Assembly: GCA_043782365.1 (NCBI GenBank)
Contig: JAYWAO010000593.1
Coordinates: 1 to 48,081 of the forward strand
From: Deltaproteobacteria bacterium
GTDB lineage: Bacteria; Myxococcota; Myxococcia; Myxococcales; 40CM-4-68-19
Direction: 5' to 3'
DNA length: 48,081 nucleotides
The notes beneath the pieces were generated by a model. It did not search any database and had not been told where the DNA came from. It saw only the letters and a list, made by a program, of their open reading frames with translations. Of the stretch, positions 1,320-30,449 are shown in pieces (position 1 is the stretch's first letter; every line of letters starts with the position of its first letter). The translations under genes and the position numbers were made by a program.

Positions 1320-1820
1320 CTAGAAGCGGTTCTCCACCGGCGGCGGCACCTGCGCCTGCGGCACGTGGCAGCTGGTGCAGACCCAGCGCGCGCCGGCGAT
1401 CTCCTTGCCGACCACGCCGGGCGCGTTGCGCCAGTCGACGTGGTGGCTCGGCGGGATCGGCGTCGGGTCCTCGGGCTCCTTCATCTTCTCGACGTCGTGG
1501 CACTTGAGGCACTGGTTGCGCTGGAGGGTAATGGGCAGATATCCGGCGATGTCGTGTGGTATCCGCGGCGGCGAAGCGCCCCACGCGCGCGGGAGCCGGT
1601 CGTTGCCGCCGGGGCTCTCGTTGACGAACTTGAACGGCCGCGGCTCGGTCACCTCGAAGAGGCTGCCCTTGCTGAGGCCGAGGTCCCTGTCGCTGAGGCC
1701 GGGCACCGGCGGGGCGGCTGGCGCTGCTGGCTTCTCGGGTGGCTGCGCGAGCGGCGCGGGGCCTTGCGCGGTGGCGCACGCCGCGAGCAGGAGGAGCGCT
1801 GCCGGGAGTTGGGTTCGCAT
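1320..1820 (-). CDS. napB: Periplasmic nitrate reductase dihaem cytochrome c subunit NapB
   Basis: ORF 1320..2024 trimmed to ATG at 1820 (signal peptide MRTQLPAALLLLAACATAQG). Two CxxCH motifs (CLKCH, CTSCH). About 166 aa. Starts 8 nt after the napA stop. Confidence 0.85.
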   Translation of the reverse strand: MRTQLPAALLLLAACATAQGPAPLAQPPEKPAAPAAPPVPGLSDRDLGLSKGSLFEVTEPRPFKFVNESPGGNDRLPRAWGASPPRIPHDIAGYLPITLQRNQCLKCHDVEKMKEPEDPTPIPPSHHVDWRNAPGVVGKEIAGARWVCTSCHVPQAQVPPPVENRF

Positions 1821-1828
1821 GTCGTCCC

Positions 1829-4600
1829 TCAGGCCTTGGTGATCTTGACGGCGCACTTCTTGAAGTCGGTCTGCTTCGAGATCGGGCAGGTGGCGTCGAG
1901 CGTCACCTTGTTGATGAAGATCCCCTCGTCGAACCACGGCACGTAGACCATCCCGGCCGGCAGCTGGTAGCGGCCCTTGGTCTCCACCACCGCCTTGATC
2001 TTCCCGCGGCGCGACTCGATCCACGCGCTCTGCCCGCGCGCCAGCCCGCGCTGCTCGGCGTCGCGCGGGTGCATATAAAGGAGCGCCGCGGGCATCGCCT
2101 GGAACAGCTCGGGCACGCGCCGGGTCATGGTGCCGGAGTGCCAGTGCTCCAGCACGCGGCCCGTCGAGAGCCAGAGGTCGTACTGCGCGTCGGGCGACTC
2201 GGGCGGCGCCGCGTAGGGCCGGAAGAAGATCTTCGCCTTGCCCGCGAGCGAGACCAGCTTTTGGTCGGTGACGCCGCGCGCGTCGCCCGAGGGGAGCTCC
2301 TTCATCGCCGCGCCGTAGAAGTCGATCTTCGCCCCCTTCTTCACATAGGGGTCATAGTCACCATTGAACCGCCACGGCGTCTCCTTGCCGTCGACCACGG
2401 GCCAGCGCAGACCGCGCACGTCGTCGTCGAAGTAGCGGTCGAACGGCGCCAGATCGTGCCCGTGCCCGCGGCCGAAGCCCGCGTACTCCTCGAAGAGCGC
2501 CTTCTCGGGGAACCAGTCGCCGCCCAGCAGCGCCGCGGTCTGGTTCGGGTGGCCCTTGGCGACCGGATCGGGCCACTTGAACTTGCGGGAGGCCTCGTTG
2601 TCGAAGAGCACCTGATACAGCGTTGTATCGGGCCCATATCCCAGCTCCGCGGCCTCGGAGAGCACGCTGGGGAGCTTGCCGGCCTCGACCCCGGCCTCGG
2701 GATTGGCGGCGAGCCCGGGCAGCTTCTGCTCGCCCCACACCTCGGAGACCTTGAGGCGCTTGGAGAGCTCGAGGATCTGCCAGACGTCGCTGCGCGCTTC
2801 GCCCGGCGGCGCCACTTGCTGCCGCCACAGCTGCGTGCGCCGCTCCGAGTTCCCGTAGGCGCCCCACTTCTCGAAGATCATCGCCGAGGGCAGGATCAGA
2901 TCGGCCACCTTGGCGCTGGTCCCGGGATAGCAGTCGGAGACCACCAGGAACGCCCCCTTCTGCCGCGCCGCCGCGATCCAATGGTTGGCATTGGCCGTCG
3001 ATTGGAACGGATTGGTCACCTGCACCCAGACCCACTTGACGCGGCCGTCCTCCAGGTCGCGCATCATCTGCGTCAGGTGGCTGCCCGGCTTGGGGTTGAG
3101 CGTGCGCGGGGGCAGCTTCCAGAGGTGCTCGGCCTTCTCGCGGTGCTTGGGATTGGTCACCACCATATCGGCTGGCAGCCGGTGCGAGAAGGTGCCCACC
3201 TCGCGCGCGGTGCCGCACGCCGAGGGCTGGCCCGTCAGCGAGAAGGCGCCGCTGCCCGGGACCGCCTGCTTGCCGGTCAATAGGTGGGCCATATACGCCT
3301 GCTCGTTCACCCAGGTGCCGCGCGTGTGCTGGTTGAAGCCCATCGTCCAATAGGAGACCACCTTGCGCTTCGGATCGGCGTACTGGTCGGCGAGCAGCAC
3401 CAGCTTGGCCTTGAAGCGCTCGAGCGGCTCGTCGGGGTCGCCCTTGGCGAGCTGCGCGACATAATCGAGCGTATAAGGCTCCACCGCCTTCTTGAACTCC
3501 TCGAATGTAATCAGCCAATGCTTGTCCGGCGTGGCGGCGTTCTTCTGCTCCACCTCCCGCGGCGCGGCGGCAGCGAGCCCCTGCCCGGCGGCCTCATCGG
3601 CGCTGAGCGTGACCTTCCGCTCGCGCAGCCGGGTGTCGAGCTCGGCCGGGAGCGCGGCCTTGTCGTCGCCGCGCATGCCATAGCCGATGTCGGTGGGCCC
3701 GGCGGCGAAGACGCAGTGCTCCTCGACGAACTTCGTGTTGACCGCCTTGCGGGCGATGATCTCCCGGGCGAGGTAGTTCCAGAGCGCAAGATCGGTGTTG
3801 GGCTTGAAGATGAGCTCGACGTCGGCGAGCGCCGAGGTGGGCGTCCCAAACGTCGTCAGGTTGATGATGCGGGCGTTCGGGTCCTTCTGCCGCTTGTCGG
3901 CGATGCGGGCCCAGAGCATCGGGTGCATCTCGGCCATGTTCGCGCCCCAGGGCACGATGGTGTCGGTGCGCTCGATGTCGTCGTAGCAGCCCGACGGCTC
4001 GTCGATCCCGAAGGTCTGCATGAACGCCGTCACCGCCGAGGCCATGCAGTGGCGCGCGTTCGGGTCGATGTTGTTGCTGCGCAGGCCCGCCTTGACGAGC
4101 TTCACCGCCGCATAGCCCTCCTGCACCGTGTATTGCCCCGAGCCCATCACCGCGAGGCCGCTCGGCCCCAACTCCGCGTGGACCCGCTTGAGCTGCGCGG
4201 CCATCTCGTCGAGCGCCCGCTCCCAGCTCACCGGGAAGAAGTCGCCGTCTTTATCGAACTGCCCGTTCTTCATCCGCAAGAGCGGCTGCGTCAATCGATC
4301 GGCGCCATAGAGGATGCGCGCGTTGGCATATCCCTTCACGCAGAGCAGGCCGCGGTTCACCGGCGCGTCGGGGTCGCCCTTGACGGCCACCACCTTGTCG
4401 CCCTTGGTGCCGACGAGCAGGCCGCAGCCCACCCCGCAGAAGCGGCACGGGGTGCGGTCCCAGGAGATCGACTTGTCGAGGTCGGTTGGGGTGGCGAGCG
4501 AGGGCGCGCCGTCCGCGGCCTCCGAGCGGCGCGAGATGCCCACCGCAGCGGCGGTGGCGGCGGCGATGGCGTTCCTGATCAGCTCACGGCGGGTGGTCAT
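1829..4600 (-). CDS. napA: Periplasmic nitrate reductase catalytic subunit NapA (Mo-bisMGD, 4Fe-4S)
   Basis: ORF 1829..4690 trimmed to ATG 4600. Twin-arginine signal [21 protein letters not shown]-terminal cluster motif CRFCGVGCG, and NapA-type sequence throughout. At 923 aa it is the long NapA form. Confidence 0.95.
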
Positions 4601-4878
4601 CGGGAGGCCCTCCCCAGCTGGACGGGCGCCGGCAGCTCGCCGTCGCCCGCTTCGAAGTAGTGGTGGACGAGCGCTGCGTGCAGCACCCACGGGAGCGCCT
4701 GGATGCGGCGCAGGCCCTCTTCCTGCTCCTCGGTGGTGTCGGTCTCTTGGGTGACCACCAGCCGGTGCTGCTCCGGGTCGAGGTGGTGCACCTGCACGCC
4801 CGGCAAGGCCGAGAGCGCCGCCAGACCCTCAGGAAAGTCCCGCTGCGAGAGCCCCACCAAGATGCCGGAGATGTTCAT
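4597..4878 (-). CDS. napD: NapD chaperone for NapA maturation/Tat export
   Basis: Last 93 codons of ORF 4597..6162 ([19 protein letters not shown]...). Small NapD-like protein. ATGA overlaps with both the nnrS stop (4875-4878) and the napA start (4597-4600). Confidence 0.8.
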
Positions 4879-6137
4879 GGCGCGGTACCTTGGCGCTTCT
4901 GCGGCAGGAGCGCCAGCGTCGCCCAGGCGAGCGTCGCCGCGAGGAACCCGGCGGCCGCCAGCGCGAACCAGAGCTGCGACGGCGCCACGTCGAGGACCGC
5001 CCGCGCGCCGAGCGCCAGGAAGAGCAGCGCGGCGACCGCGACATGTTGCCACGGGCTGGTGGAGAGCAGCGAAGGCCGCCCGCCGTGCGAGAGCGAGATG
5101 TGCGCGCCCACCGAGAGCACGAGCAGCGCGAAGCAGCCGATGAACGTGACGTGCAGGCCGAGCAGGCGCAGGCCCGGCGCGGCGGCGACGATGAGGCTCC
5201 CGGCGGGCAGGAGCCACGCCGCCACCCAGACGAGCCAGCGGTGCAGCCCGGGCATCGAGGGCCGCCGCCAGAGCTGCATGGTGCCCGCCACCACCCAGAG
5301 CGCCAAGAGGCCGCGCAGCGCGAAGCCCAGCCGGAGATCGAAGAGCGGTTCGATGAAGGCGGCGGCGGTCCAGAGCGCGCAGCCGACGGCGTGGCGCAGG
5401 AGCGCGCTGCGGTAGGGGGCTCCGGCGGCGACGCGCGACGGATCGGTCCCGCGGGTGATGGCGGGCACCAGGAACGCGCCCGTGCCGAGCACCATCCCGG
5501 TGAAGACTCCCTGCAGGACCAGCGTGCGGCCCACCTCGAAGAGCAAGCCCAGCCGCGCGGGCAGCCACGGCCCGGCGGCGATGAAGAGCGAGCCCAGGAC
5601 GCCCCAGGCGAGGCCCATCGCCACCCAGAGGAAGGCGGGCGGGAGCTGGTTCTTGGCCCGGGCGGTGCGCGCGCGCTGCAAGGCGAAGCGGGCGAGCGTG
5701 CCGAGGGTGACGAGCCAGCAGACCTGCGCGAGGAGCCAGGCGCCCGCCAGCGCGCAGACCGCCAGCAGCGCCGGGCCAGCGAGGCAGACGACCAGCTCCC
5801 AGGTCGCGGGCGGCGCGGTGCCCGTGCGGCGGGGCAAGAAGGTGAAGAGGAACCCGAGCGCGAAGCAGATGAGAAACCCCTGCACCTGCACCAGGGAGTG
5901 GTAGGCGGGCAGGTACGCCGCTCCCACGCCGATCCCCACCAGCAGCCAGGGCAGCACGCCGGCCCACGCGAGGACGAGGCCGAGAGGGAAGAAGAGCTTC
6001 CAGGGGTCCTTCTTCCAGGCGGCGGCGACGGCGAGCTCGGGAGAGGCGGCGAGCAGCTTCAGCGGCGGCTCGGGCTTGCGCAGCGGCGCCGGGGCGGGCA
6101 CGGGCGGGTGAGGGACGACGGGCAAGGTCGGGTCCAT
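4875..6137 (-). CDS. nnrS: NnrS-family haem/copper membrane protein (NO-stress associated)
   Basis: ORF 4875..6326 trimmed to MDPTLPVV (ATG 6137). About 420 aa and polytopic (about 12 hydrophobic helices), with NnrS-like layout and conserved His positions. First gene of the nap operon. Confidence 0.75.
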   Translation of the reverse strand: MDPTLPVVPHPPVPAPAPLRKPEPPLKLLAASPELAVAAAWKKDPWKLFFPLGLVLAWAGVLPWLLVGIGVGAAYLPAYHSLVQVQGFLICFALGFLFTFLPRRTGTAPPATWELVVCLAGPALLAVCALAGAWLLAQVCWLVTLGTLARFALQRARTARAKNQLPPAFLWVAMGLAWGVLGSLFIAAGPWLPARLGLLFEVGRTLVLQGVFTGMVLGTGAFLVPAITRGTDPSRVAAGAPYRSALLRHAVGCALWTAAAFIEPLFDLRLGFALRGLLALWVVAGTMQLWRRPSMPGLHRWLVWVAAWLLPAGSLIVAAAPGLRLLGLHVTFIGCFALLVLSVGAHISLSHGGRPSLLSTSPWQHVAVAALLFLALGARAVLDVAPSQLWFALAAAGFLAATLAWATLALLPQKRQGTAP

Positions 6138-6173
6138 GCTGCATGGGCTCTGCAAGGGGCACGCCCGCTGCGG

Positions 6174-6187
6174 CTGATACTCATGAC
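6174..6187. promoter_or_regulatory. Candidate Crp/Fnr-type site (cTGAT-ACTC-ATGAc) that also contains a perfect NarL-type heptamer TACTCAT
   Basis: Lies in the 227-bp divergent nnrS/hybE intergenic region. Matches 7 of the 8 core positions of TGAT-N4-ATCA. TACTCAT fits TACYYMT. The centre is only about 43 nt from the nnrS ATG. Confidence 0.25.
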
Positions 6188-6364
6188 TGCCCGCGCACGC
6201 GCGCTCCGCCCCGGTGAGCGGTCGGCGCGTCTCGGCTGTTCCTTTTTGGAGCAGAGGCCGATGCCGGCCAACTGCCGCCCGAACCGGCACCCGAACCACG
6301 AGCACGTGGGCATGAACCGTGCACAAGCGAAGCGCCCGTCGTCTGCACGCCTGGAGCGCAGCCC

Positions 6365-6859
6365 ATGTCCACCAGCGAGTCGAGCGAGCAGGGTGAAGCG
6401 TCGGGTCCGCCGTCCGTCGAGGCGCTGCTCGCTGCTTATCGCCGGGTCGACGAGACCATGCGCGCGCTGCCCGTCTACAACGCCGCCCTGCAGGTCGCGG
6501 CGGCCGGCTTCCGGCCGTTCGAGGGTGGGCTCATCGGCGTGATCGTCACGCCCTGGTTCATGAACCTCGTCCGCGTGCCCGCGCGCGGCGCCGAGGTGGA
6601 AGCGGGCGTGACGCGCGAGTCGGCGCTGCCCGCGCACCGCGTCGATCTGGTCGGCGCGCGCCTCGACGGCGCGCCCCCGTTCGAGTTCCGCCCGATCGTC
6701 TCACCGATGGACGACTTTCCTTCCCAGGCACAAGTATTACTCACCGCCGGCGAGGTGATGGACGCGCTCTTCACGCCCCGCGAGGTCACTGCCGGGGTCC
6801 AGGAACCGCTCGCGCGGGTGACGGGCCGGCGCGGTCTCTTCAACGCCTTGCGCAAGTGA
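6365..6859 (+). CDS. hybE: [NiFe]-hydrogenase assembly chaperone, HybE/HupJ-like
   Basis: 164 aa. Core ...GGLIGVIVTPWFMNLVRVP... is typical of the HybE family. Sits immediately upstream of hupK and the hyp genes. Confidence 0.7.
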   Translation: MSTSESSEQGEASGPPSVEALLAAYRRVDETMRALPVYNAALQVAAAGFRPFEGGLIGVIVTPWFMNLVRVPARGAEVEAGVTRESALPAHRVDLVGARLDGAPPFEFRPIVSPMDDFPSQAQVLLTAGEVMDALFTPREVTAGVQEPLARVTGRRGLFNALRK

Positions 6860-6872
6860 GGGAGCGGAGCAG

Positions 6873-8027
6873 ATGAGCGCGCCCGGCGCCGACCTCCTGG
6901 TCGAGCTGCACTTGCTGGCAGGACGGGTCGCCAGCGTCAAGCTGCTCTCCCGCCGCCCGACCGAGGCATCGCGCGTCCTCGAAGGAAAGCCCGTGGAGCG
7001 CGCGCTGGCTGCGGCCCCGCTGCTCTGGAGCATCTGCTCGACCGCCCACTCGGTGGCGGCGCTCGCGGCGGTGGAGGCGGCGCTGGGCATCGCCGTGCCC
7101 GCCCAACAGCGGCGCGCGCGCGAGGTGCTGGCGCTGGCCGAGGCGATCGACAACCACGCGTGGCAGCTGTGTCTGGAGTGGCCGCGGCTCGCGGCGCTGC
7201 CGACCGAGCCCGCGGCGCTCAAGGCGGTGCGGGCGGTGACCTCGGGGCTCCAGGCGGCGCTCTTCGGGGAGACTCCCTGGCGGGTGCCGGGCGGTGTGGA
7301 GCTGAAGCCCGAGGCCGGCGCCGTGCTGGAGGCAGCGGACGCGCTGGAGGTGAAGTTGGGCGCGCTCGCGGGCGCGCCGCTCCCCGACTCCCTGGAGCTG
7401 CTGCGCGGCGCGGCGCTGGCGCCGGACACTCCGGTGATGGCGCTGCTCGCCCGCGCTCTCGAGAAGAGTCATACACCTGAGGCCGCCGCCCCCTCGCAGC
7501 TGCTCCCCGCGCTCGCGCCGGCCTGGTTCCTCGCCCGCCGGGACGAGCCGCTGCTCTCCCGTTCGCCGCTCTTCCTGGGAGCCCCAGCCGAGACGGGCGC
7601 GCTCTCCCGGCAGCAGCACCACCCGCTGGTAGCCGAGGCGCTGCGGACCCGGGGTCCGGGAACGCTCGCCCGCCTGCTCGCGAGGCTCGTCGAGGTCGCC
7701 GGGCTGCCCGCGCAGCTCCGGTCGCTGGCGAGGGACCTCGTGCCTGCGGAGCCCGCCACTCGCGGCCCTGCGCACGCGGCGAGCGGCGCCGGCGCCGGAG
7801 TGGTCGAGACGAGCCGCGGCCTGCTCGCGCACGTGGTGACGCTCGAGCACGGAGTGGTGACGCGGTGGCGCACGGTCGCGCCCACCGAGTGGAACTTCCA
7901 CCCGGAGGGACCCCTCGCCAGCGCCCTGCGCGGCCTGCCTGCGGAGGGCCTCGCCGAGCGGGCGGCGCTGGCGGTGACGGCGCTCGACCCATGCGTCGGC
8001 CATGAAGTCCGCCTCGTCGGCCGATGA
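6873..8027 (+). CDS. hupK: HupK/HoxV-type hydrogenase large-subunit-like scaffold protein
   Basis: 384 aa. Resembles the large subunit but has a degenerate N-terminal metal motif (LWSICSTAHS). Retains VETSRGLLAHV, APTEWNFHPEGP and C-terminal DPCVGHE. RBS GGGAGCGGAG lies upstream. Confidence 0.75.
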   Translation: MSAPGADLLVELHLLAGRVASVKLLSRRPTEASRVLEGKPVERALAAAPLLWSICSTAHSVAALAAVEAALGIAVPAQQRRAREVLALAEAIDNHAWQLCLEWPRLAALPTEPAALKAVRAVTSGLQAALFGETPWRVPGGVELKPEAGAVLEAADALEVKLGALAGAPLPDSLELLRGAALAPDTPVMALLARALEKSHTPEAAAPSQLLPALAPAWFLARRDEPLLSRSPLFLGAPAETGALSRQQHHPLVAEALRTRGPGTLARLLARLVEVAGLPAQLRSLARDLVPAEPATRGPAHAASGAGAGVVETSRGLLAHVVTLEHGVVTRWRTVAPTEWNFHPEGPLASALRGLPAEGLAERAALAVTALDPCVGHEVRLVGR

Positions 8028-8207: not shown

Positions 8208-8501
8208 ATGTGCTTGGGAGTCCCCGGCAAGGTGCTGGAGGTCGACGGCCTGTCCGCCACGGTCGACTTCTTCGGCGTGCGCAAGGTCGTGCGCCTCGAC
8301 GTCTGCGATGAGCCCGTCAAGCCCGGCGACTACGTGCTCAACCACGTGGGCTTCGCGATCCACCGCATCCCCGACACCGAGATCGCGGCGACGCTCCAGC
8401 TCTTCGACCAGATCCTCGCTGACGCCGGGCCGCAGGATCTGATGGCCGCCGACGTGCGCGGCGAGATCCAGGCGGGCGAGGCGGCCAATGTCCGCTCCTG
8501 A
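8208..8501 (+). CDS. hypC: Hydrogenase maturation chaperone HypC
   Basis: Starts MCLGVPGKVLEV, the invariant N-terminal Cys motif. RBS AAGGAGGGG. 97 aa. Confidence 0.9.
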   Translation: MCLGVPGKVLEVDGLSATVDFFGVRKVVRLDVCDEPVKPGDYVLNHVGFAIHRIPDTEIAATLQLFDQILADAGPQDLMAADVRGEIQAGEAANVRS

Positions 8502-9666
8502 CCTCGCCGCCATGGGCCCCAACCTCGGAAGCGCCACCGACAAGGCGCTGCGCGAGCTGAAGTTCCGCGACCCGGCCCGCGCGAAGGCGCTCGTCGAGGG
8601 CCTGAACAAGACCGTCAACGAGATCGGCCGCGAGAAGGTGGCGGTGATGCACGTCTGCGGCAGCCACGAGCAGGCGATCGCGCGCTTCGGCCTGCGCTCC
8701 TCGTTCCCCAAGGGACTCGACGTGATCATGGGGCCCGGCTGCCCCGTCTGCATCACCGACGTGCCCGAGGTGGACGAGGGCGTGCAACTGGCGCGGCAGG
8801 GCGTGCGGATCGCCACCTACGGCGACATGCTCAAGGTGCCCGGCACGGTGAAGTCGCTCGCGCAGGCGCAGGCCGAGGGCGCGAAGGTCGACGTGGTCTA
8901 TTCGGTCGCGCAGGCGGTCCAGCTCGCGCGCGCGACCAAGGAAGAGCTCTGCTTCTTCGCGACCGGCTTCGAGACCACCGCGGTGGCCACCGCCGCCGAG
9001 ATCCTCGCGGGCGTGCCGGCGAACTTCTCGGTGCTCTCCGCGCACAAGTACATCCCGCCGGTGATGGAGATCGTCACCGAGATGCCGCACAGCCGCGTCG
9101 AGGGGTTCCTCGCTGCCGGCCACGCCGCCAGCATCACGGGCTGGGGAGTCTTCGAGGAGTTCGCCGAGCGGCACAAGAAGCCCGTGGTGGTCGCGGGCTT
9201 CGAGCCGCTCGACATCCTCGCTGCCTTGCTGCAATTGGTCGAATTGATCCGCGACGGCAAGCACACCGTGCTCAACGCCTTCCCGCGCGCGGTCTCCAAA
9301 GAGGGGAACCTCAAGGCGCAGGGGACGCTCTGGAAGGTCTTCCGCCCGCTCGGCGGCCGCTGGCGGGGGATCGCGCACGTGCCCAACGGCAACCTGCGCC
9401 TGCGCGACGAGTACGCGCACCTCGACGCGCGCCGCCGCTTCAAGATCGACCTGCAGCAGCTCTGGGACTACGCGCCCGCACAGCTCTCGCAGCAGTGCGT
9501 CTGCGGCGACATCATGGCCGGGATGACCAAGCCTACCGACTGCGCGCTCTACGGAAAGCAGTGCACGCCGGAGGCGCCGGTGGGCGCCTGCATGGTGTCG
9601 AGCGAGGGGGCGTGCCGCATCTGGCAACAGTACGGCGGCCACCCGGATCTGTCGGAGGTGCGCTGA
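8488..9666 (+). CDS. hypD: Hydrogenase maturation protein HypD
   Basis: Motifs FRDP, HVCGSHE and GPGCPVC, with C-terminal Cys clusters. Overlaps the hypC end. The start could alternatively be the ATG at 8512. Confidence 0.95.
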   Translation: MSAPDLAAMGPNLGSATDKALRELKFRDPARAKALVEGLNKTVNEIGREKVAVMHVCGSHEQAIARFGLRSSFPKGLDVIMGPGCPVCITDVPEVDEGVQLARQGVRIATYGDMLKVPGTVKSLAQAQAEGAKVDVVYSVAQAVQLARATKEELCFFATGFETTAVATAAEILAGVPANFSVLSAHKYIPPVMEIVTEMPHSRVEGFLAAGHAASITGWGVFEEFAERHKKPVVVAGFEPLDILAALLQLVELIRDGKHTVLNAFPRAVSKEGNLKAQGTLWKVFRPLGGRWRGIAHVPNGNLRLRDEYAHLDARRRFKIDLQQLWDYAPAQLSQQCVCGDIMAGMTKPTDCALYGKQCTPEAPVGACMVSSEGACRIWQQYGGHPDLSEVR

Positions 9667-10700
9667 TGGCGCTCAATCCGCTGCTGGGCGATAGAGTATT
9701 ACTCAAGCACGGCGCCGGCGGCCGCGCGATGCGGATGCTCATCCAGAGCGTCTTCGTCGAGGGCCTCGCGGGCAAGGTCGACGGCGTCGGCCTCGCCGCG
9801 ATGGACGACGGCGCGGCGCTGCGGGTCGGCGACCAGTGGTTGATCCTGACCACCGACTCGCACGTGGTGCAGCCGCGCTTCTTTCCGGGCGGCGACATCG
9901 GCCGACTGTCGATCAGCGGCACGGTCAACGACCTGGCGATGATGGGCGCCACCGAGCCGCTCGGGCTCACCTGCGCAGTGGTGCTCGAGGAGGGCTTCCC
10001 CTTCGAGGAACTGGCGCGCATCCGCGACTCGATGAAGCAGGCCTGCCTGGAGGCGGGCGCGGTCGTCGTCACCGGCGACACCAAGGTGATGGGCAAGGGC
10101 GAGGTGGACGGCTGCGTCTTCAACACCACCGGCGTGGGGCTCACCGACCGGGTGATCCGCGACTGCGACCTGCGCCCCGGCGACAAGCTGATCTTCACGG
10201 GCACCATCGCCGACCACGGCATCACCATCATGGCCACCCGCCACCAGCTGGAGCTGGAGGGCGACCTGCGCTCGGACGTGGCGCCGATCAACGGCCTCAT
10301 CCGCCTGGCGCTGAAGGCCGGTGGCGCGGGCCTGGTCGCGCTCAAGGACCCCACCCGCGGCGGCGTCTCCTCCACCCTGCACGAGCTCGCGGGCAAGAGC
10401 GGAGTAGGTGTATTACTCGACGAGCTGGCGATCCCGGTGCGGCCGGAGATCCGCGCCGCCGCAGATCTAATGGGCATCGACCCGCTGGTGGTCGCCAACG
10501 AGGGCAAGGCGGTGATCGGCGTTCGCCCCGAGGTGGCCGACCGGGTCCTGGCCGCGCTGCGCGAGCACCCGCTCGGGCGCAACGCCGCCATCGTCGGCAC
10601 CTGCCTCGCCGATTGGAAGGGCAAGGTCATCCTCGACACCGGCGTGGGCAAGCGGCTGCTCGCCGAGCTCGAGGGCGAGCCGATGCCGCGGATCTGCTGA
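9666..10700 (+). CDS. hypE: Hydrogenase maturation protein HypE (carbamoyl dehydratase)
   Basis: ORF 9495..10700 trimmed to MALNPLLGD (ATG 9666, overlapping the hypD TGA). AIR-synthase-like fold sequence. Ends in the diagnostic PRIC. Confidence 0.95.
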   Translation: MALNPLLGDRVLLKHGAGGRAMRMLIQSVFVEGLAGKVDGVGLAAMDDGAALRVGDQWLILTTDSHVVQPRFFPGGDIGRLSISGTVNDLAMMGATEPLGLTCAVVLEEGFPFEELARIRDSMKQACLEAGAVVVTGDTKVMGKGEVDGCVFNTTGVGLTDRVIRDCDLRPGDKLIFTGTIADHGITIMATRHQLELEGDLRSDVAPINGLIRLALKAGGAGLVALKDPTRGGVSSTLHELAGKSGVGVLLDELAIPVRPEIRAAADLMGIDPLVVANEGKAVIGVRPEVADRVLAALREHPLGRNAAIVGTCLADWKGKVILDTGVGKRLLAELEGEPMPRIC

Positions 10701-10738
10701 TTCAAGAGGATATCGATGGATCTCCGTGGGAGCGCGCC

Positions 10739-11572
10739 GTGAGCTACATCAAGACGGAGAAGCTCGGCGCCGTCGGCGTGCTCACCATGGAGCGCCGCGA
10801 GCGGTTCAACGCGATGGACGTCGAGATGGCCCGCGACTTCCGCGCCGCCGGGCTCCTGCTCGGGCGCGACCCTGAGGTGCGCGCGGTGCTCCTGCGCGGC
10901 TATCCGGGCGTCTTCTCCAGCGGCGCAGACCTGAAATACATCCGCGGCGGCGGCGACCAGGCTTCCCTCGGCTACCTCAGCCCCAAGGCGCGCGAGGTGC
11001 CGAAGGGATACGGCGAGGTGTTCAAGCAGATCCTCGAGTACCTCCACTCGACCCTCTCGGAGATCCGCCGCTCCGCCAAGCCTTGGATCGCCGCGGTCGA
11101 CGGGATCGCCGCGGCGGGCGGGTTCGGCATCGCCATGTCCTGCGATCTGGTGGTGGCCTCCGAGCGGGCCGCGTTCGAGTGGGCCTACGGCAAGACCGCG
11201 CTCACCGGAGCGGAGAGCAGCACCTTCATGATCACGAGGCTGGTCGGCTTCCGGCGCGCGATGGAGCTGGCGCTGCTCAACCCGCGGCTCGACGCGCAGG
11301 CTGCGCTGGGCCTGGGCCTCATCAATCGGGTGTTGCCTGGCGAGGGCTTCGACGCCGCGGCCCTCGCGCTCGCGGCCTCGGTGGCCGCCGGCCCGACGCG
11401 GTCGTTCGCGGTCACCAAGCAGCTGCTCAACCAGTCGGCCGGGCTCGACCGGCTCGACTTCCACCTCGACCGCGAGCTCGACGAGCTCTCCCGCATCGCC
11501 GACACGCCCGACTTCGCCGAGGGCCTCGCGGCCTTCTTCGCCAAGCGGCCAGCAGACTTCCGGGGACGGTGA
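10739..11572 (+). CDS. Enoyl-CoA hydratase/isomerase (crotonase) superfamily protein embedded in the hyp operon
   Basis: C-terminal part of ORF 9836..11572. Proposed GTG start at 10739 (VSYIKTEKLGAVGVLTMERRERFNAMD), preceded by GGGAG. Crotonase motifs FSSGADL and AAVDGIAAAGGFGIAMSCD. Its TGA overlaps the hypA ATG. Confidence 0.8.
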   Translation: MSYIKTEKLGAVGVLTMERRERFNAMDVEMARDFRAAGLLLGRDPEVRAVLLRGYPGVFSSGADLKYIRGGGDQASLGYLSPKAREVPKGYGEVFKQILEYLHSTLSEIRRSAKPWIAAVDGIAAAGGFGIAMSCDLVVASERAAFEWAYGKTALTGAESSTFMITRLVGFRRAMELALLNPRLDAQAALGLGLINRVLPGEGFDAAALALAASVAAGPTRSFAVTKQLLNQSAGLDRLDFHLDRELDELSRIADTPDFAEGLAAFFAKRPADFRGR

Positions 11573-11913
11573 TGCACGAATACTCGGTGGTGCAGGCGCT
11601 GCTCGAACAGGTGGAAGGGCACGTGCGCGGCCGCGGCGCGGTCAAGGTCCACCGCGTAAGGCTCAAGCTCGGCGAGTCCGCTGGCGTCGACCCGGAGCTC
11701 TTCCTCACCGCGCTCGAGACCTTCCGGAGAGGATCGGTGCTCGAGGGCGCAGAGCTCGAGATCTTGCGCGTGCCCACCGCCTGGGAGTGCGGGCTCTGCA
11801 AGACGCCGATCGCCCGGGGCGAGAAGCTCCAGTGCGCCCTCTGCGGCGGACCGGGCAAGCAGGTGTCCGGCGGCGAGCTCGTCCTCGACCAACTCGAACT
11901 GGAGGTGCCGTGA
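11572..11913 (+). CDS. hypA: Hydrogenase nickel insertion protein HypA
   Basis: MHEYSVVQALLEQV N-terminus (MHE Ni site). Zn motif CGLC...CALCG. 113 aa. Confidence 0.9.
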   Translation: MHEYSVVQALLEQVEGHVRGRGAVKVHRVRLKLGESAGVDPELFLTALETFRRGSVLEGAELEILRVPTAWECGLCKTPIARGEKLQCALCGGPGKQVSGGELVLDQLELEVP

Positions 11914-12680
11914 TGTGCCAAGACTGTGGCTGTGGTGATCCGGACCTCGTCCCGCTCGAGATCCAGCAGCGGATCCTCTGGCAGAACGACGTCACCGCGC
12001 AGCACAACCGCGAGCACTTCGAAGCGGCGGGCATCCTCGCGCTGAATCTGATGGGCTCGCCGGGCTCGGGGAAGACGGCCCTCCTGGAGGCGACCGCGCG
12101 GCGCTTGGGCGACCGCCTGCGCCTGGGCGCGGTGAGCGGCGACCTCGCCACCGACAACGACGAGCAGCGGCTGCGAAAGGCGGGCATTCCGTCGGCCACC
12201 ATCACCACCGGTCAATCGTGCCACCTCGACGCGCGCCTCGTGCACGAGTGCCTGCACGACTTCAACGATCACCAGGGAACGGCGGGGCTCGACGTCTTCG
12301 TCATCGAGAACGTCGGCAACCTCGTCTGCCCTGCGATCTACGACCTCGGCGAGGCGGTGCGCGTGGTCGCGCTCTCGGTCACCGAGGGCGAGGACAAGCC
12401 GATCAAGTACCCGGTGATGTTCCAGCACGCCGACCTGGTGCTGATCACCAAGTGCGATCTGCTCCCGCACCTCGACGTCGACCTCGCCGCCCTCCACGAC
12501 GCGCTCGCGCGCGTGATGCCCGAGCCCAGGACGCTGCTGGTCTCGGCGCGCACGGGTGAGGGCATCGACAAGTTCATCCAGTTCCTCGAGGAGAAGCGTG
12601 CGGGATTGTCGGAGAAGGCGGCCGCTGCGGCGAGGTCGGGCGGCGTAACGGGCCATTCGCGCGGACACGCTCACGCTTAG
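11913..12680 (+). CDS. hypB: Hydrogenase nickel-incorporation GTPase HypB
   Basis: MCQDCGCG N-terminal Ni site. P-loop GSPGSGKT, ENVGNLVCP, TKCDL. ATG overlaps the hypA TGA. Confidence 0.95.
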   Translation: MCQDCGCGDPDLVPLEIQQRILWQNDVTAQHNREHFEAAGILALNLMGSPGSGKTALLEATARRLGDRLRLGAVSGDLATDNDEQRLRKAGIPSATITTGQSCHLDARLVHECLHDFNDHQGTAGLDVFVIENVGNLVCPAIYDLGEAVRVVALSVTEGEDKPIKYPVMFQHADLVLITKCDLLPHLDVDLAALHDALARVMPEPRTLLVSARTGEGIDKFIQFLEEKRAGLSEKAAAAARSGGVTGHSRGHAHA

Positions 12681-12747
12681 TCTAGAAGCCGACGCGCACG
12701 ACAAAGGTTGCCGGTCGTGCGTGCGTGATCGCGCCAGGGAGTTCGAG

Positions 12748-15024
12748 ATGGTCGCAGGACGCCACATCGCCATCCGGGGCACGGTGCAAGGGGTGGGCTT
12801 CCGCCCCTGGGTCTACCGGGTGGCGCGCGGGCTGGGCGTGCGCGGCTGCGTGCTCAATGACGCCTCCGGGGTGGTGATTGAAGCGTTTGCATCCGCGGAG
12901 ACGCTGGCGCGGTTCGAGGCGGTGCTGCGGCGCGACCCGCCTCCTGCGGCGCGGATTGTGTCGTTTGAAAGCCGCGCGATCGACGGCGACGGCCCGCAGG
13001 AGTTCGTCATCGCCCCCAGCCGGCGCTCCGAGGAGCGGCGGGTGTCGATCCCGCCCGATCTCGCGACCTGCCCGGAGTGTGAGCGGGAGCTGTTCGATGC
13101 AAAGGACCGCCGCTTCCACTATCCGTTCATCAACTGCACCAACTGCGGTCCGCGCTTCACCATCGCGCAAGGCGCGCCGTATGACCGGCCGCTCACCACC
13201 ATGGCGCCGTTCGTGCTCTGCGCGGAGTGCGCGCGCGAGTACCGCGACCCGGCCGACCGGCGGTTCCACGCGCAGCCCAACGCCTGCCCCGTGTGCGGGC
13301 CCAGGCTGCGCGCGACCCGGGGCGATGGTTTGACACTCTCGGGAGACCCGATCGCGCTGGCGGCGGAGGCGCTCGCGGGCGGCGGGATCGTCGCGGTGAA
13401 GGGGCTCGGCGGGTTCCACCTCTCTTGCGACGCCACCGACGCGGCCGCGGTGCGCCTGCTGCGGACCCGCAAGCACCGCGAGGAGCGGGCGTTCGCGGTG
13501 ATGGTGCGCACCTTGGAGGAGGCGCGCGCGCTGGCCGACCTGGCGCCCGAGGAGGCGCGGCTGCTCGGGTCGGTGGAGCGGCCGATCACGCTGGTGCAGC
13601 GCCGGAGCGGCGCGCGGCTGGCGCCCGAGGTGGCCCCCGGCAATCCGCGGGTGGGGCTGATGCTCGCGTACTCGCCGCTGCACCACCTGCTGCTCCACGG
13701 CGTGGGGCGGCCGCTGGTGATGACCTCGGGGAACCTCTCCGACGAGCCGATCGCCCTGCGCAATGAAGAGGCGCTCGCCCGCCTGCAGGGCCTCGCCGAC
13801 CTGTTCCTGCTGCACGACCGCGAGGTCGAGACCCGCTGCGACGACTCGGTGGCCCAGCTCGTCGCGGGCGCGCCGATGGTGCTGCGCCGCTCGCGCGGGT
13901 ACGTGCCGCGCGGCATTCCGCTCGACCACCAGGTGAAGGCGTCGGTGCTGGCGGTGGGAGCGGATCTCAAGAACGCCATCTGCGTCGCCGCGGGCGACAC
14001 CGCCTGGCTGGGACCGCACGTCGGCGACCTCGGCAGCCCCGAGACGTGGCGCTCGCTCGAAGAGGGGACCGGCAAGCTCTTGCGCTTCTTGCAGGTGACC
14101 CCCGCGCGCATCGCCTGCGACCAGCACCCGGACTCGATCGCGGCCTCGTTCGCGCGCCAGCTCGCCACCCGCCTCGGCCTGCCGGCGCCGGTGCGGGTGC
14201 AGCACCACCACGCGCACGTCGCCAGCGCCATCGCGGAGCACGGGCTGGACGGAAAGGTGATCGGCGTCGCCTTCGACGGCACGGGCTGGGGCCCCGACGG
14301 CACGCTCTGGGGCGGGGAGGTATTGCTCGCCGATTACACGGGATATCAGCGGCTCGCGACCCTGCGGCCGATCCCGCTGCCGGGCGGCGAGACGGCGATC
14401 CGGCAGACCTGGCGGGTGGCGCTCGCCGCGCTCGACGACGCCTTCGAGGGCCGCACCCCCGTGGAGCGGCTGCCGCTGTTCGCGCAGGTGCCGCGGCAAG
14501 AGATCGCGGTCGCCCGCAGGCTGGTGGAGCAGGGCTTCAACGCGCCGCTCGCGCGCGGAGTGGGCCGGGTCTTCGACGCCGCGGGCGCCATCGCGCTGGG
14601 TCGTCCGCGCGCGAGCTACGAGGGGCAGGTCGCCCTCGACTGGAACCTCGCGTCGGGACCGGCCGGCGTCAGGAGATATCCGTTCGTCATCGACGGCGCT
14701 CGGGCACCGCGGGAGCTGGACCTGCGCCCGCTCTGGCGCGCGCTCTGCGAAGACGTGCTCGCCGGCGTACCGGCGGCCCGGATCTCCGCCGCCTTCCACG
14801 ACACGCTGATCGAGGCCACCGCGGCGCTGGTGCGCGGCGCCGCCGAGCAGTGCGGAGCGCTGCCGGTGGTGCTGACCGGCGGCTGCTTCGCCAACGCGCG
14901 CCTCGCGGAAGGGCTGGCGCTGGCGCTCACCGGATTCGAGGTCCACCTGCACCGCCAGGTGCCGCCCGGCGACGGCGGCCTCGCGCTCGGACAGGCGCTG
15001 GTGGCAAACGCAAGCCCCGCTTGA
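12748..15024 (+). CDS. hypF: Carbamoyltransferase HypF
   Basis: Acylphosphatase-like N-terminus (IRGTVQGVGFRPWVY). Zn fingers CPECERE...CTNCGPRF and CAEC...CPVCGP. YrdC-like and Kae1-like parts. ATG 12748 is preceded by GGGAG; GTG 12721 is an alternative start. Confidence 0.95.
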   Translation: MVAGRHIAIRGTVQGVGFRPWVYRVARGLGVRGCVLNDASGVVIEAFASAETLARFEAVLRRDPPPAARIVSFESRAIDGDGPQEFVIAPSRRSEERRVSIPPDLATCPECERELFDAKDRRFHYPFINCTNCGPRFTIAQGAPYDRPLTTMAPFVLCAECAREYRDPADRRFHAQPNACPVCGPRLRATRGDGLTLSGDPIALAAEALAGGGIVAVKGLGGFHLSCDATDAAAVRLLRTRKHREERAFAVMVRTLEEARALADLAPEEARLLGSVERPITLVQRRSGARLAPEVAPGNPRVGLMLAYSPLHHLLLHGVGRPLVMTSGNLSDEPIALRNEEALARLQGLADLFLLHDREVETRCDDSVAQLVAGAPMVLRRSRGYVPRGIPLDHQVKASVLAVGADLKNAICVAAGDTAWLGPHVGDLGSPETWRSLEEGTGKLLRFLQVTPARIACDQHPDSIAASFARQLATRLGLPAPVRVQHHHAHVASAIAEHGLDGKVIGVAFDGTGWGPDGTLWGGEVLLADYTGYQRLATLRPIPLPGGETAIRQTWRVALAALDDAFEGRTPVERLPLFAQVPRQEIAVARRLVEQGFNAPLARGVGRVFDAAGAIALGRPRASYEGQVALDWNLASGPAGVRRYPFVIDGARAPRELDLRPLWRALCEDVLAGVPAARISAAFHDTLIEATAALVRGAAEQCGALPVVLTGGCFANARLAEGLALALTGFEVHLHRQVPPGDGGLALGQALVANASPA

Positions 15025-15057: not shown

Positions 15058-15696
15058 ATGAACGGTTCGACCCCAGCGTTCCTCGCTCTCGCCGCCGGCG
15101 CCGCCTCGATCGGCGCCCTCCATTCGCTCGCGCCCGACCACTGGGTGCCGTTCGCCGCGCTGGCCCGCGCGCGCGGCTGGTCCACCTGGAAGACCGCGCG
15201 GATCACCGCCGTTTGCGGCCTCGGCCACGTGACCGTCTCGGCCTTGCTGGGCCTGCTCGCGCTCTGGTTTGGCCTGAAGACGCTCAGGCTCTTCGGCGAG
15301 CGGCTCGAGGCGGTGGCCGGCATCCTGCTCATCGCCTTCGGCCTCGCCTACGGCATCTGGGGCCTGCGCAATGCGATGAGCGAGAAGCTGCACCACCACT
15401 CGCACGTCGACCCCGAGAAGACCTCGGTGCTGACGCTCTTCCTGCTCTTCTCGGCCGACCCCTGCGTGGCGGTGATGCCGCTGCTCTTCGCCGCCGCGCC
15501 CCTCGGCGTCTTCAAGGCCGGCGCGGTCGTCCTCACCTACGAGCTCGCCACGCTCTCGGCGATGATCGCGCTGGTGATGCTCGCCAACGCGGGCGCCCAG
15601 CGGCTGCGCGCGCACTGGCTCGACCACTACGGCGACGCCTCCGCGGGCGGCGTGATCGCGGTGACCGGCGTGGCGGTGCTGCTGCTCGGCTGGTAG
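15058..15696 (+). CDS. Putative Ni/Co permease-like membrane protein (family unresolved: HupE/UreJ- or NicO/UreH-like)
   Basis: 212 aa with about 6 TM helices. N-terminal HSLAPDH motif and a His-rich loop KLHHHSHVDPEK. Located right after hypF. Confidence 0.45.
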   Translation: MNGSTPAFLALAAGAASIGALHSLAPDHWVPFAALARARGWSTWKTARITAVCGLGHVTVSALLGLLALWFGLKTLRLFGERLEAVAGILLIAFGLAYGIWGLRNAMSEKLHHHSHVDPEKTSVLTLFLLFSADPCVAVMPLLFAAAPLGVFKAGAVVLTYELATLSAMIALVMLANAGAQRLRAHWLDHYGDASAGGVIAVTGVAVLLLGW

Positions 15697-27536: not shown

Positions 27537-28535
27537 TCAAGGAGCGAGGCCTCCAGCGGCCAGGCGGCGGGCGAGCTCGAAGTAGAGGGGCACGCCGAAG
27601 AGCACGTTGAACGGGAAGGTGATCGCCAGCGCCGCCGTCAGGTAGAGCGTCGGGTTGGCCTCGGGCAGCGTCAGGCGGACCGCGGGCGGGGCCGCGATGT
27701 AGGAGGCGCTCGCCGCCATCGCGCCCAGCACCGACGCGCCGCCGGGCGAGAGGCCCGCCAGGGTCCCCAGCCAGACGCCGAGCGCGCCGTGCAGCACCGG
27801 GACGACCACCGCGAAGGCCACCAGGAACGGGCCGACCTTGCGCAGGTCGCCCAGCCGCGCGCCCGCCAGCACCCCCAGCTCCAGCATGAAGAGGCAGAGG
27901 GCGCCGCGGAACACCGCGCCCTTGGTGTCGTAGAAGGGCTCGATCGCCTTCCAGCCCCGGTCGCCGATGAGGAAGCCGACGGCGAGGCCGCCCACCAGCA
28001 GGACCATGGTCCGGCCCGTCAGGACCTCGTGGAGCAGCGCGCTGACCGGCCGGCCGCCTGCCTTGGCGGTGCCGATCACGCCGATCGCCAGCGCCACATG
28101 GATGCCCGGGCTCTCCAGGAGCGCCAGCAGCGTGGGCATGAACCCCTCGGCCTCGAACCCCTGCGCCTTGGCGAAGCTGCTGGCGACGATGAAGGTGACC
28201 GCCGAGACCGAGCCGTAGTGGGCGGCGAGGCCCGCGGCGTCCGCCACCCCGAAGCGGCCGAGCCTGCGCAGCAGCAGATAGGCGCTCACCGGCGTGAAGA
28301 GACCCAAGAGGAGCGTCACCGCGGCGGGCCCGGCGATGGCGCGCAGCGAGGCGTGGTGCAGCTCGAGCCCGCCCTGCAGGCCCAGCGACCAGAGCAGGAA
28401 GATGGAGAGGCCCGCGTAGACGTCCTTCGGCAGCGAGAACTCGCTCTTCACCGCGCGGGCGCCGAGGCCGAGCGCAAAGGCGAGGGGGACGGGGGCCAGC
28501 AGGTTCGCCGAGAGGGTCTGCGCGAGGTCGCTCAT
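27537..28535 (-). CDS. SbtA-like sodium-dependent bicarbonate transporter family permease (DUF897)
   Basis: C-terminal 332 codons of ORF 27537..29597, starting MSDLAQTLSANLLAPVPLAFALG. Clear colinear similarity to the SbtA-family layout (…HYGSVSAVTF…, …FRGALCLFMLELG…, …ASASYIAAP…). Confidence 0.8.
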   Translation of the reverse strand: MSDLAQTLSANLLAPVPLAFALGLGARAVKSEFSLPKDVYAGLSIFLLWSLGLQGGLELHHASLRAIAGPAAVTLLLGLFTPVSAYLLLRRLGRFGVADAAGLAAHYGSVSAVTFIVASSFAKAQGFEAEGFMPTLLALLESPGIHVALAIGVIGTAKAGGRPVSALLHEVLTGRTMVLLVGGLAVGFLIGDRGWKAIEPFYDTKGAVFRGALCLFMLELGVLAGARLGDLRKVGPFLVAFAVVVPVLHGALGVWLGTLAGLSPGGASVLGAMAASASYIAAPPAVRLTLPEANPTLYLTAALAITFPFNVLFGVPLYFELARRLAAGGLAP

Positions 28536-28583
28536 GGCCGCCTCTTGCCCGGCGGGCGGTCCCAGGTGCAAGGATATGCTATG

Positions 28584-28605
28584 AAACGATGCAACCCATC
28601 GTTTT
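28584..28605. promoter_or_regulatory. Perfect 8-bp inverted repeat AAACGATG-N6-CATCGTTT, a candidate LysR-type operator
   Basis: Located in the 75-bp AT-richer divergent sbtA-like/lysR intergenic region, just upstream of the preferred LysR start (28611). Confidence 0.4.
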
Positions 28606-28610
28606 TGGTT

Positions 28611-29528
28611 ATGCGTCTGCCTCGGAGCCGGCTTCGCTTGAACTACCACCACCTCCACTACTTCTCCGCGGTGGCGCGGGCCGGGTCGGTGGTCCAGGCC
28701 GCCCGTGACCTCGGCGTCTCGCAGCCCACCATCAGCGCGCAGCTGCGCCTGCTCGAGGAGGCGCTCGGGGAGAAGCTGCTGCAGCGGCGCGGCCGCGGAC
28801 TGCGTCTGACCGAGATGGGCCTGCTCGTGCAGCGCTACGCCGAGGAGATCTTCCACCTCGGCGCCGAGCTGGAGGAGGCGGTGCGCGGCAGGCCCACCAG
28901 CGGGCCGCAGCGCTTCACGGTGGGCATCTCCGACTCCCTGCCCAAGCTCACCACGCTGCGCCTGCTGCAGCCCGCGCTGGAGGCGCAGCCTGCCTTCCGC
29001 CTGGTCCTGCGCATCGACAAGACGGCGCGCCTGCTGGCCGACCTCGCCACCCTCGGGCTCGACCTGGTGCTCGCCGACCAGCCGGCCCCGCCCGGCCTCG
29101 AGGTGAACGCCTTCAGCCACCTGCTCGGCGAGAGCGGCGTGGCGGTGTTCGGAGCGCCCGCGCTGGCCGACCGCTACCGGCGCGGCTTTCCCCGCTCCCT
29201 GCAGGGCGCGCCCTTCGTGCTGCCCTCGGCCGGCACCGCCCTGCGCCGGTCGCTCGACCAGTGGTTCACCGCCCGGCAGGTGCGCCCGCAGGTCGTCGCC
29301 GAGGCCGACGACCTGGGCCTCCTCCAGATCCTCGGCCAGCAGGGTCTGGGACTGTTTGCCGCGCCCGCGGTGGCAGCGGAGTTCATCAAGGCCCAGCATG
29401 GCGTCCGCACCCTCGGCGTGCTCTCGGGTGTGAAAGAGCGGTTCTACGCCCTCACCGTGGAGCGGCGGCTTCGCCACCCGGCGGCGGTCGCGATCCAGGC
29501 GGCGGCGCGGAGCGACCTCTTCGCGTGA
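28611..29528 (+). CDS. LysR-family transcriptional regulator (NhaR-like)
   Basis: MRLPRSRLRLNYHHLHYFSAVARAGSVVQAARDLGVSQPTISAQLRLLEEALG is the HTH region, followed by a LysR substrate-binding domain. ATG 28581 is an alternative start. Confidence 0.85.
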   Translation: MRLPRSRLRLNYHHLHYFSAVARAGSVVQAARDLGVSQPTISAQLRLLEEALGEKLLQRRGRGLRLTEMGLLVQRYAEEIFHLGAELEEAVRGRPTSGPQRFTVGISDSLPKLTTLRLLQPALEAQPAFRLVLRIDKTARLLADLATLGLDLVLADQPAPPGLEVNAFSHLLGESGVAVFGAPALADRYRRGFPRSLQGAPFVLPSAGTALRRSLDQWFTARQVRPQVVAEADDLGLLQILGQQGLGLFAAPAVAAEFIKAQHGVRTLGVLSGVKERFYALTVERRLRHPAAVAIQAAARSDLFA

Positions 29529-29615
29529 GGCGCGATGCCGCGGCGGCTCGGGCGCACTGGTTGCAACGCGCCCGCTGCAGCAGTCGCACGCAACCAATCC
29601 TCACGGAGGTGTCTC

Positions 29616-30116: not shown

Positions 30117-30449
30117 CTATCGCGACAGGTCGGCGCCCGGGATCCAGGCGGCCGCCCCGAAAGCCGCCGATGAAGCGCGCCTCGGCCACCTCCAGCACCC
30201 AGCGGGCCCGCCCGTTGCTGCTGCTGCTGCCAGAACGAAGAGGCTCGCGCGCGGATCGGCGAGGACATTCTTGGTGTGCTCGGCGAGCGCGCTGAAGGCG
30301 AAGAGCGGCGCTCCCCGCGGGGTCAGCGCAAACGGTGCGAGGGAGCCCATCGGCCACCCGGGCTGGTGGGATCGCCGCAAGGTCGAGAGCACGCCGTAGC
30401 GCGCGCCAGCGAGAAGGGACTGCGCGGCCTGTGCTGCGTCGGCGGGCAT
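30117..30449 (-). pseudogene. Decayed PNPOx-like/HugZ-family FMN-binding protein gene (internal deletion plus frameshifts)
   Basis: Frame 1 reads MPADAAQAAQSLLAGARYGVLSTL...PFALTPRGAPLFAFSALAEHTKNVLADPRASLFVL, then nonsense. The expected C-terminal motif appears split over two frames (WVLEVAEARFIGGF in one frame, GAAAWIPGADL in the other). About 55 aa of the family core is missing next to a (GCA)5 run at 30216-30230. Confidence 0.5.

Follow-up and report, generated by a model that had tools for sequence, protein, structure and literature searches.

The window analyzed here, a stretch of 48,081 nucleotides that constitutes a whole contig (C593), carries a stand-alone gene for a crotonase-fold protein between hypE and hypA. 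This gene represents a family that is undescribed in the literature we found, with no account of a stand-alone, hyp-linked crotonase among 8.4 million full texts. The family is tied to hyp genes across phyla, and its active site and phylogenetic placement suggest a probable common origin with HypX's C-terminal domain. HypX/HoxX (of C. necator pHG1, R. leguminosarum and A. aeolicus) is an N10-formyl-tetrahydrofolate-dependent CO synthase of aerobic [NiFe]-hydrogenase maturation. We consider it probable that the protein encoded in the window is a free-standing counterpart of the HypX C-domain, one that would decarbonylate formyl-CoA and thereby supply the CO ligand.

A crotonase gene embedded in a hyp operon

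The window belongs to a 5.8-Mb assembly of 618 contigs that is 89.5% complete, and the nearest relatives of this genome are metagenome-assembled genomes (MAGs) of Myxococcales. The crotonase gene occupies positions 10739 to 11572 of the forward strand, where a stop-free frame runs from a GTG at 10739 to a TGA at 11570-11572 and encodes 277 aa. Besides the open reading frame and its translation, the gene call is supported by 80 syntenic homologues and by a match to Pfam ECH_1 (E 1.6e-41; 142.7 bits, where the cut-off is 27) that places the protein in the crotonase superfamily. The motifs FSSGADL and GGFGIAMSCD are found at residues 59-65 and 127-136, respectively.

Upstream, hypE ends canonically (...PRIC, then TGA at 10698-10700) and is followed by a 38-nt spacer that holds no alternative in-frame start. 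A GGGAG site resembling a Shine-Dalgarno sequence, read directly from the sequence, is located in this spacer (10728-10732, forward strand), 6 nt 5' of the GTG. Because the homologues are almost all 277 aa long and align from residue 1, the assigned start is correct. Downstream, the crotonase TGA and the hypA ATG overlap by base 11572 (TGATG), and the product of hypA starts with MHE. The junction of hypD and hypE at 9664-9668 shows the same TGATG coupling. The original prediction had described a 277-aa gene that starts 38 nt after hypE, carries the two motifs and has a stop codon overlapping the hypA start, and every one of these details is confirmed. Its further claim that the gene is an integral part of the hyp operon is borne out by the TGATG coupling and by the recurrence of the same gene order, hypE-crotonase-hypA, in relatives.

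The remaining genes of the cluster are likewise on the forward strand. The cluster opens with a gene for a HybE-type assembly chaperone (6365-6859; NCBIfam TIGR03993, 3.8e-32; Pfam NiFe-hyd_HybE), which is followed by a hupK/hoxV-like scaffold gene (6873-8027). The product of the latter is a relative of the hydrogenase large subunit, with a partial match to Pfam NiFeSe_Hases; in a BLASTP comparison, it matches C. necator HoxV with an E-value of 8e-12 (384 versus 383 aa), in agreement with the earlier assignment of HupK/HoxV to this locus. Next are hypC (8208-8501; Pfam HupF_HypC, 3e-23), hypD (8488-9666; Pfam HypD, 5.2e-125) and hypE (9666-10700), whose ATG overlaps the stop codon of hypD; counted from this ATG to the C-terminal PRIC, its product has approximately 344 aa, and it matches Pfam AIRS and AIRS_C. 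Beyond the crotonase gene lies hypA (11572-11913; 113 aa; Pfam HypA, 2.4e-23), which is translationally coupled to it. The listed reading frame of hypB (11787-12680; Pfam cobW/HypB/UreG, 4.5e-17) begins within hypA, and the real start is probably near 11910. A full-length hypF follows (12721-15024; 767 aa; five HypF domains in Pfam).

The last gene of the cluster (15058-15696, forward strand) encodes a conserved membrane protein of 212 aa that has weak matches to LysE and DsbD_2 only and no NCBIfam match. Homologues of this multi-pass protein are encoded after hypB or straight after the crotonase gene in approximately 35 related loci. It may be a hyp-linked transporter for a metal, perhaps nickel.

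Other features of the window concern respiration and electron transfer. A Nap cluster (NapB, NapA, NapD and an NnrS-like protein) occupies 1320-6326 on the reverse strand, divergent from hybE and directly upstream of it, so genes for nitrate respiration and for H2 oxidation are neighbors. The region 30335-31732 (forward strand) encodes a multihaem cytochrome c that has MtrC/MtrF-like domains and CXXCH motifs in pairs. Near it are a gene for an Sbt-type bicarbonate transporter (27537-29597, reverse strand) and large open reading frames without Pfam matches.

Hydrogenase and oxygen context

The only [NiFe] hydrogenase in this genome is specified by a Hyb-type operon, HybO-A-B-C-D, on another contig (C2:5044-10725; locus L087). 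The enzyme is group 1c-like and does not belong to the classical O2-tolerant group 1d. Four haem-copper oxidase genes are present in the genome. Given four oxidases, and a periplasmic nitrate reductase encoded beside the hyp cluster, maturation of the Hyb hydrogenase with oxygen present is plausible. The Hyb operon, which encodes the small subunit, HybA, a membrane subunit, the large subunit and a protease, is located directly downstream of fadI/fadJ-like beta-oxidation genes.

A family separate from generic crotonases

By general resemblance alone, the gene could be taken for an ordinary PaaG-like or fatty-acid crotonase that lies in a hyp operon by chance. Public annotation of its homologues reads 2-(1,2-epoxy-1,2-dihydrophenyl)acetyl-CoA isomerase, and by both sequence and fold the closest known proteins are PaaG, the 1,2-epoxyphenylacetyl-CoA/oxepin-CoA isomerase, and related generic crotonases, at 35-43% identity. 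The best PDB relatives are PaaG structures from T. thermophilus (6slb, E 1e-34; also 3hrx), with first rank in Foldseek. An AF2 model of the window protein (pTM 0.81) has the crotonase fold; among 846 PDB matches at E <= 0.001, the best 50 are all crotonase-superfamily structures, headed by PaaG and other crotonases, and HypX is not among these best 50 of 846. PaaG, generic crotonases and the window protein also share the oxyanion-hole motifs, as well as Tyr at position 150.

This resemblance does not extend to family membership, however. The best NCBIfam models are PaaG-like and score 142-157 bits against cut-offs of 300-345, so that no model reaches its cut-off (at best 157 bits versus 300); the PaaG model itself, TIGR02280, gives 142 bits where 345 are required. 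The catalytic Asp136 of PaaG is replaced in the window protein by Ala158, with Glu159 adjoining. Moreover, the neighbors of the window gene are hyp genes, with no paa or beta-oxidation genes adjoining. An exhaustive search of 1.84 billion representatives revealed a step in score, from 354 bits for family members to 207 bits for a single distant member (42% identity) and then to 166 bits or less for generic crotonases. Among the long matches of the same search, ten candidates for fusions were inspected, and none joins a formyltransferase to a family crotonase; these ten carry ECH domains only, or an unrelated SnoaL domain.

Association with hyp genes in several phyla

Genome context also argues against an ordinary crotonase. 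A scan of 185,579 species genomes yielded 129 relatives, of which the best 80 (55-81% identity) were used. All of these 80 are from MAGs, and at least six phyla are represented: the loci belong to Myxococcota, Acidobacteriota (Vicinamibacteria and Thermoanaerobaculia), Gemmatimonadota, Planctomycetota, Betaproteobacteria and Chloroflexota. Neighbors were counted by tblastn with the Hyp proteins of the window against the 80 loci. At least one hyp gene is present in 79 of the 80. HypE is encoded upstream, on the same strand and no more than 1 kb away, in 71 of the 73 loci that have enough flanking sequence, and 43 loci have a tight hypE-crotonase junction like that of the window. Immediately downstream of the crotonase gene is hypA in 58 of 79 loci and the gene for the 212-aa membrane protein in nine of 79. 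Six Myxococcales MAGs among the close relatives (L003-L008; 74-81% identity) carry the gene in their hyp clusters in the same hypE-crotonase-hypA layout, an outcome in line with the original prediction.

We also surveyed an even sample of 61 genomes from the order to which the window belongs. Seven of them contain the crotonase family, and 36 contain HypD. Six genomes have the two together, with approximately 2 kb between the crotonase gene and hypD. The remaining family-bearing genome (G048, an assembly that is 75% complete) carries the crotonase on a short contig and yielded no HypD match. Conversely, of the 25 order genomes that lack a HypD match, 24 gave no family match either, G048 being the exception. 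The crotonase is therefore a facultative accessory that accompanies roughly one in six hyp operons of the order. It is not a stray fatty-acid enzyme, and with linkage of this kind across phyla, together with the active-site residues described below, the notion of a chance insertion of an ordinary crotonase is effectively excluded.

Active-site residues held in common with HypX

The window protein and HypX resemble each other in their crotonase fold, in an aligned Tyr and Glu, and in operon position, the gene being next to hypE just as hypX follows hypE in C. necator and R. leguminosarum. A BLASTP alignment with C. necator HypX covers 191 residues at 27% identity (E 1e-7). It pairs Tyr150 (codon 11186-11188, forward strand) with Tyr439 of C. 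necator HypX, equivalent to Tyr416 in A. aeolicus, and Glu159 (codon 11213-11215, forward strand) with Glu449, equivalent to Glu426. The same pairing was obtained by profile-profile alignment of the family with HypX by hhalign (98.1% probability, 203 columns) and in a joint MAFFT alignment. Mutation of Tyr439 and Glu449 results in a HypX-minus phenotype, and in the A. aeolicus HypX structure the Tyr and Glu flank the CoA thiol (PMC6802093).

Tyr150, Gly157, Ala158 and Glu159 are invariant in all 81 family members. Where the family has Gly-Ala-Glu, HypX has Gly-Ser-Glu, and the Tyr-x8-Glu spacing of the family recurs exactly in the HypX proteins of Acaryochloris, Nocardia and Streptantibioticus. 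By contrast, the 106 nearest representatives outside the family typically have Pro-Asp-Gly at positions 157-159, in which the Asp corresponds to the catalytic Asp136 of PaaG. Only three of these 106 carry Glu159, and those three have the full family motif, as distant members. Because Tyr150 is also common in generic crotonases (84 of 106), only Glu159 discriminates. The original prediction had suggested checking for HypX-specific active-site residues, and the window protein carries both Tyr150 and Glu159.

Differences from HypX are equally clear. HypX is a protein of approximately 560-600 aa with a fused formyltransferase domain of the Fmt/FDH type, whereas the window protein is 277 aa long with a single ECH domain and has no counterpart of the fused N-domain with its His/Asp/Asp triad. 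The shuttling of bound CoA between two domains, as in HypX, is impossible for a single-domain protein. The family also has invariant residues of its own (Asp121, Glu147, Trp148 and Thr153) that are not common to HypX, and a specific, conserved insertion at residues 66-87 (10934-10999, forward strand; KYIRGGGD...LGYLSP.AREVP.GYGE). This insertion adds approximately 15 residues, making the segment that contains it 56 residues long versus 41 in generic crotonases and 45 in HypX, both of which lack it. Its sequence is near-invariant, yet AlphaFold models it at a pLDDT of less than 50. The insertion may form a loop that docks onto HypC/HypD, or a lid.

Probable phylogenetic kinship with HypX

Phylogenetic trees were based on 41 family members, the 52 nearest generic representatives, seven paralogues from the genome itself and the C-domains of ten HypX proteins, which represent Beta- and Alphaproteobacteria, Cyanobacteria and Actinomycetota. 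Two paralogues of the genome were excluded for their great length, as was a fragmentary row (P0310). The diverse HypX sequences were drawn from plasmid records (Rhizobium, Acaryochloris, Streptantibioticus and Nocardia), as a profile scan of genome contigs matched 568 HypX and the HypX fetched were all from Betaproteobacteria.

In a tree calculated with IQ-TREE under LG+G4, the family, the HypX C-domains and the distant member P0253 form one group with UFBoot 99 and SH-aLRT 95. After removal of 21 columns of the active-site loop, SH-aLRT for this group is 84 (99 one node out), and under a C20 mixture model with 64 rows it is 94. The order of branching inside the group has support values of 65/43. 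In all three trees, then, the crotonase groups with HypX C-domains and not with ordinary crotonases, which is the outcome that the original prediction of a HypX C-domain analogue had called for. HypX has a very long branch, which leaves room for convergence on the active site; the stem of the family is short, however, so that the long HypX branch is not being pulled to another long branch. On the basis of these trees, a common origin of the family and the HypX C-domains is probable, and convergence on the same active-site solution would not be our preferred reading.

Profile comparisons provide little further guidance. With an HMM of HypX C-domains, the window gene ranks first among the ten crotonase paralogues of the genome by a small margin (36.0 versus 31.4 bits). 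Against the HypX C-domain profile, a generic crotonase profile scores slightly higher than the family profile (174.7 versus 158.8), and profile-profile scores do not discriminate kinship with HypX.

Full-length HypX was not found in this genome, where an HMM of HypX N-domains matched only the housekeeping Fmt on contig C587. Nor was full-length HypX detected in the 61 genomes of the order, in a scan that had no positive control, the same profile having matched 568 HypX elsewhere. Apparently split hypX genes on plasmids of Mesorhizobium huakuii (L168:6055-7632) and Sulfurovum mangrovi (L169:6001-7351) were considered as family members and rejected, as they look like broken canonical hypX. In both, hypX after hypE is annotated in pieces, labeled 'formyltransferase family', 'enoyl-CoA hydratase-related' or hypothetical. 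These pieces are probably frameshifted or decaying hypX and not true two-gene systems.

A formyltransferase partner in relatives

The distance from hypE to the crotonase gene is 320-940 nt in 28 loci, versus less than 150 nt otherwise. A gene for a Formyl_trans_N protein of 189-276 aa resides in this gap in 25 of the 28, and in one additional locus with short flanking sequence (26 in total). The matches to Pfam Formyl_trans_N have E-values of 1e-17 to 8e-19, and the catalytic signature Asn-x-His...Asp is invariant. A formyltransferase gene is thus the most frequent extra neighbor of the crotonase gene, and the order hypE-formyltransferase-crotonase reproduces both the domain order of HypX and the operon slot of hypX in C. 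necator pHG1 and R. leguminosarum.

These two-gene modules, from uncultured Acidobacteriota, Gemmatimonadota and others, contain a crotonase of the same family (61-69% identity to that of the window) with identical invariant residues, in the same slot between hypE and hypA. No paper describing such modules was found. According to NCBIfam, the partner is PurN-type, with scores of 62-72 bits that are under the 150 required for PurN. It is missed by a profile built from the N-domains of ten diverse HypX, which does detect the housekeeping Fmt; the pair is therefore not HypX simply split in two.

The modules have a formyltransferase where the window and its Myxococcales relatives have none, the spacer of the window being only 38 nt. 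The original prediction had noted that the window encodes no formyltransferase-like partner, which is correct, and had proposed searching the genome for a separate formyltransferase-like gene. The only two Formyl_trans_N matches of the assembly are PurN on C36 (238 bits to TIGR00639) and Fmt on C587, both housekeeping, and tblastn searches with two partner proteins retrieved only this PurN and Fmt. No dedicated formyltransferase was therefore found in the 89.5%-complete assembly, and the proposal of a split HypX fails for this genome. A formyl-CoA transferase of the Frc type was not found in this genome either.

Lack of a partner is common in the family, as two thirds of the loci have no formyltransferase gene at all. 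Five near-complete partner-less genomes have matches at the level of PurN only, with no dedicated formyltransferase elsewhere. Because such near-complete genomes also have none, the lone crotonase is a stable and widespread state. On the family tree, presence of the partner requires at least five or six changes, implying that the partner formyltransferase has often been gained or lost. In a Gemmatimonadaceae MAG (L070:7679-8001), a C-terminal remnant of a PurN-type formyltransferase, 55 residues long (E 3e-9), survives in the 320 nt that separate hypE from the crotonase gene, a snapshot of partner loss. A different arrangement is found in a complete Thermoanaerobaculia chromosome (L052:6001-8001), where hypE and the crotonase gene are 2 kb apart; no formyltransferase was matched in between, and the interval contains an open frame of 430 aa.

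The frequent changes in partner presence, the decay in L070 and the lack of a dedicated formyltransferase in the assembly invite the explanation that the window crotonase is a functionless leftover of a two-gene module. We judge this unlikely. The frame is intact and tightly coupled for translation on both sides, and every catalytic and family-invariant residue has been kept. The dN/dS of the gene is 0.25-0.35 relative to four partner-less relatives in Myxococcales; the partner-less crotonase is thus under purifying selection. The 43 loci with the same tight junction and the five near-complete partner-less genomes also argue against a decaying remnant.

Proposed function

The synteny of relatives, the HypX-type Tyr and Glu and the three trees all favor the suggestion in the original prediction that the gene is an analogue of the HypX C-domain. 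Our preferred reading is that the crotonase acts on a CoA thioester, converting formyl-CoA to CO. The released CO would be handed to the HypC-HypD scaffold, the site of Fe(CN)2CO assembly, by an enzyme that is co-translated with hypD-hypE and hypA. In this way, the crotonase could allow the Hyb-type hydrogenase of an oxidase-bearing myxobacterium to mature when the anaerobic route to CO is unavailable. Formyl-CoA would have to come here from another source, which might be a housekeeping formyltransferase, a CoA-transferase or other acyl-CoA metabolism. That formyl-CoA is the substrate, that CO is the product and that HypCD receives it are all inferences on our part. Weighing against the scheme are a sequence much nearer to PaaG-like crotonases than to HypX (E 1e-34 versus 1e-7), a hydrogenase of the Hyb type and not of a classical O2-tolerant class, a partner in relatives that does not resemble the HypX N-domain, and the failure of searches for a dedicated formyltransferase or Frc-type transferase in this genome.

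The main alternative, possible although rather doubtful, is that the protein is a genuine maturation accessory with a chemistry other than formyl-CoA decarbonylation. It might, for example, decarboxylate or hydrolyze a C2 thioester for the CO ligand, or serve HypCD as a CoA-dependent carrier or scaffold. Strict linkage to hyp genes demands a role in maturation but leaves the substrate free, and a dedicated formyl donor is missing from this genome and from the two thirds of loci without the partner gene. The invariants Glu147, Trp148, Asp121 and Thr153 and the conserved 15-residue insertion, none of which is found in HypX, would fit such a distinct activity, as would profile scores that do not tie the family to HypX. 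However, the sole discriminating catalytic residue that the two have in common is the Glu of HypX, an enzyme that could donate formyl groups is the most frequent extra neighbor, and the trees join the family to HypX C-domains.

We tentatively raise a further possibility. The lone crotonase could be a minimal, tetrahydrofolate-independent CO synthase that draws free formyl-CoA or another small acyl-CoA out of general metabolism and provides the carbonyl ligand unaided, and HypX and the two-gene modules could be later elaborations in which a dedicated formyl-loading step was added.

Implications

A 2025 review ranks the source of CO elsewhere as the most urgent question still open, considers formyl-CoA a possible precursor and lists fused HypX only (PMC12134894). 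The family described here would represent the CO-releasing half of HypX in a small form with a gene of its own, often without a formyl-loading enzyme, and it is common in uncultured Myxococcota, Acidobacteriota and Gemmatimonadota. As a simple protein, the crotonase would allow formyl-CoA decarbonylation to be studied in isolation, and crotonases without partners offer a natural experiment on the origin of formyl-CoA. Thousands of genes labeled 'PaaG' or 'enoyl-CoA hydratase-related' could be given a better annotation. For the organisms, the results suggest that Hyb-type hydrogenases of soil aerobes have an oxygen-compatible route of maturation. If the lone crotonase is a minimal CO synthase, soil bacteria would widely employ a CoA-thioester route for the CO ligand, and this would provide a concrete handle on the origin of the ligand outside HypX-bearing aerobes.
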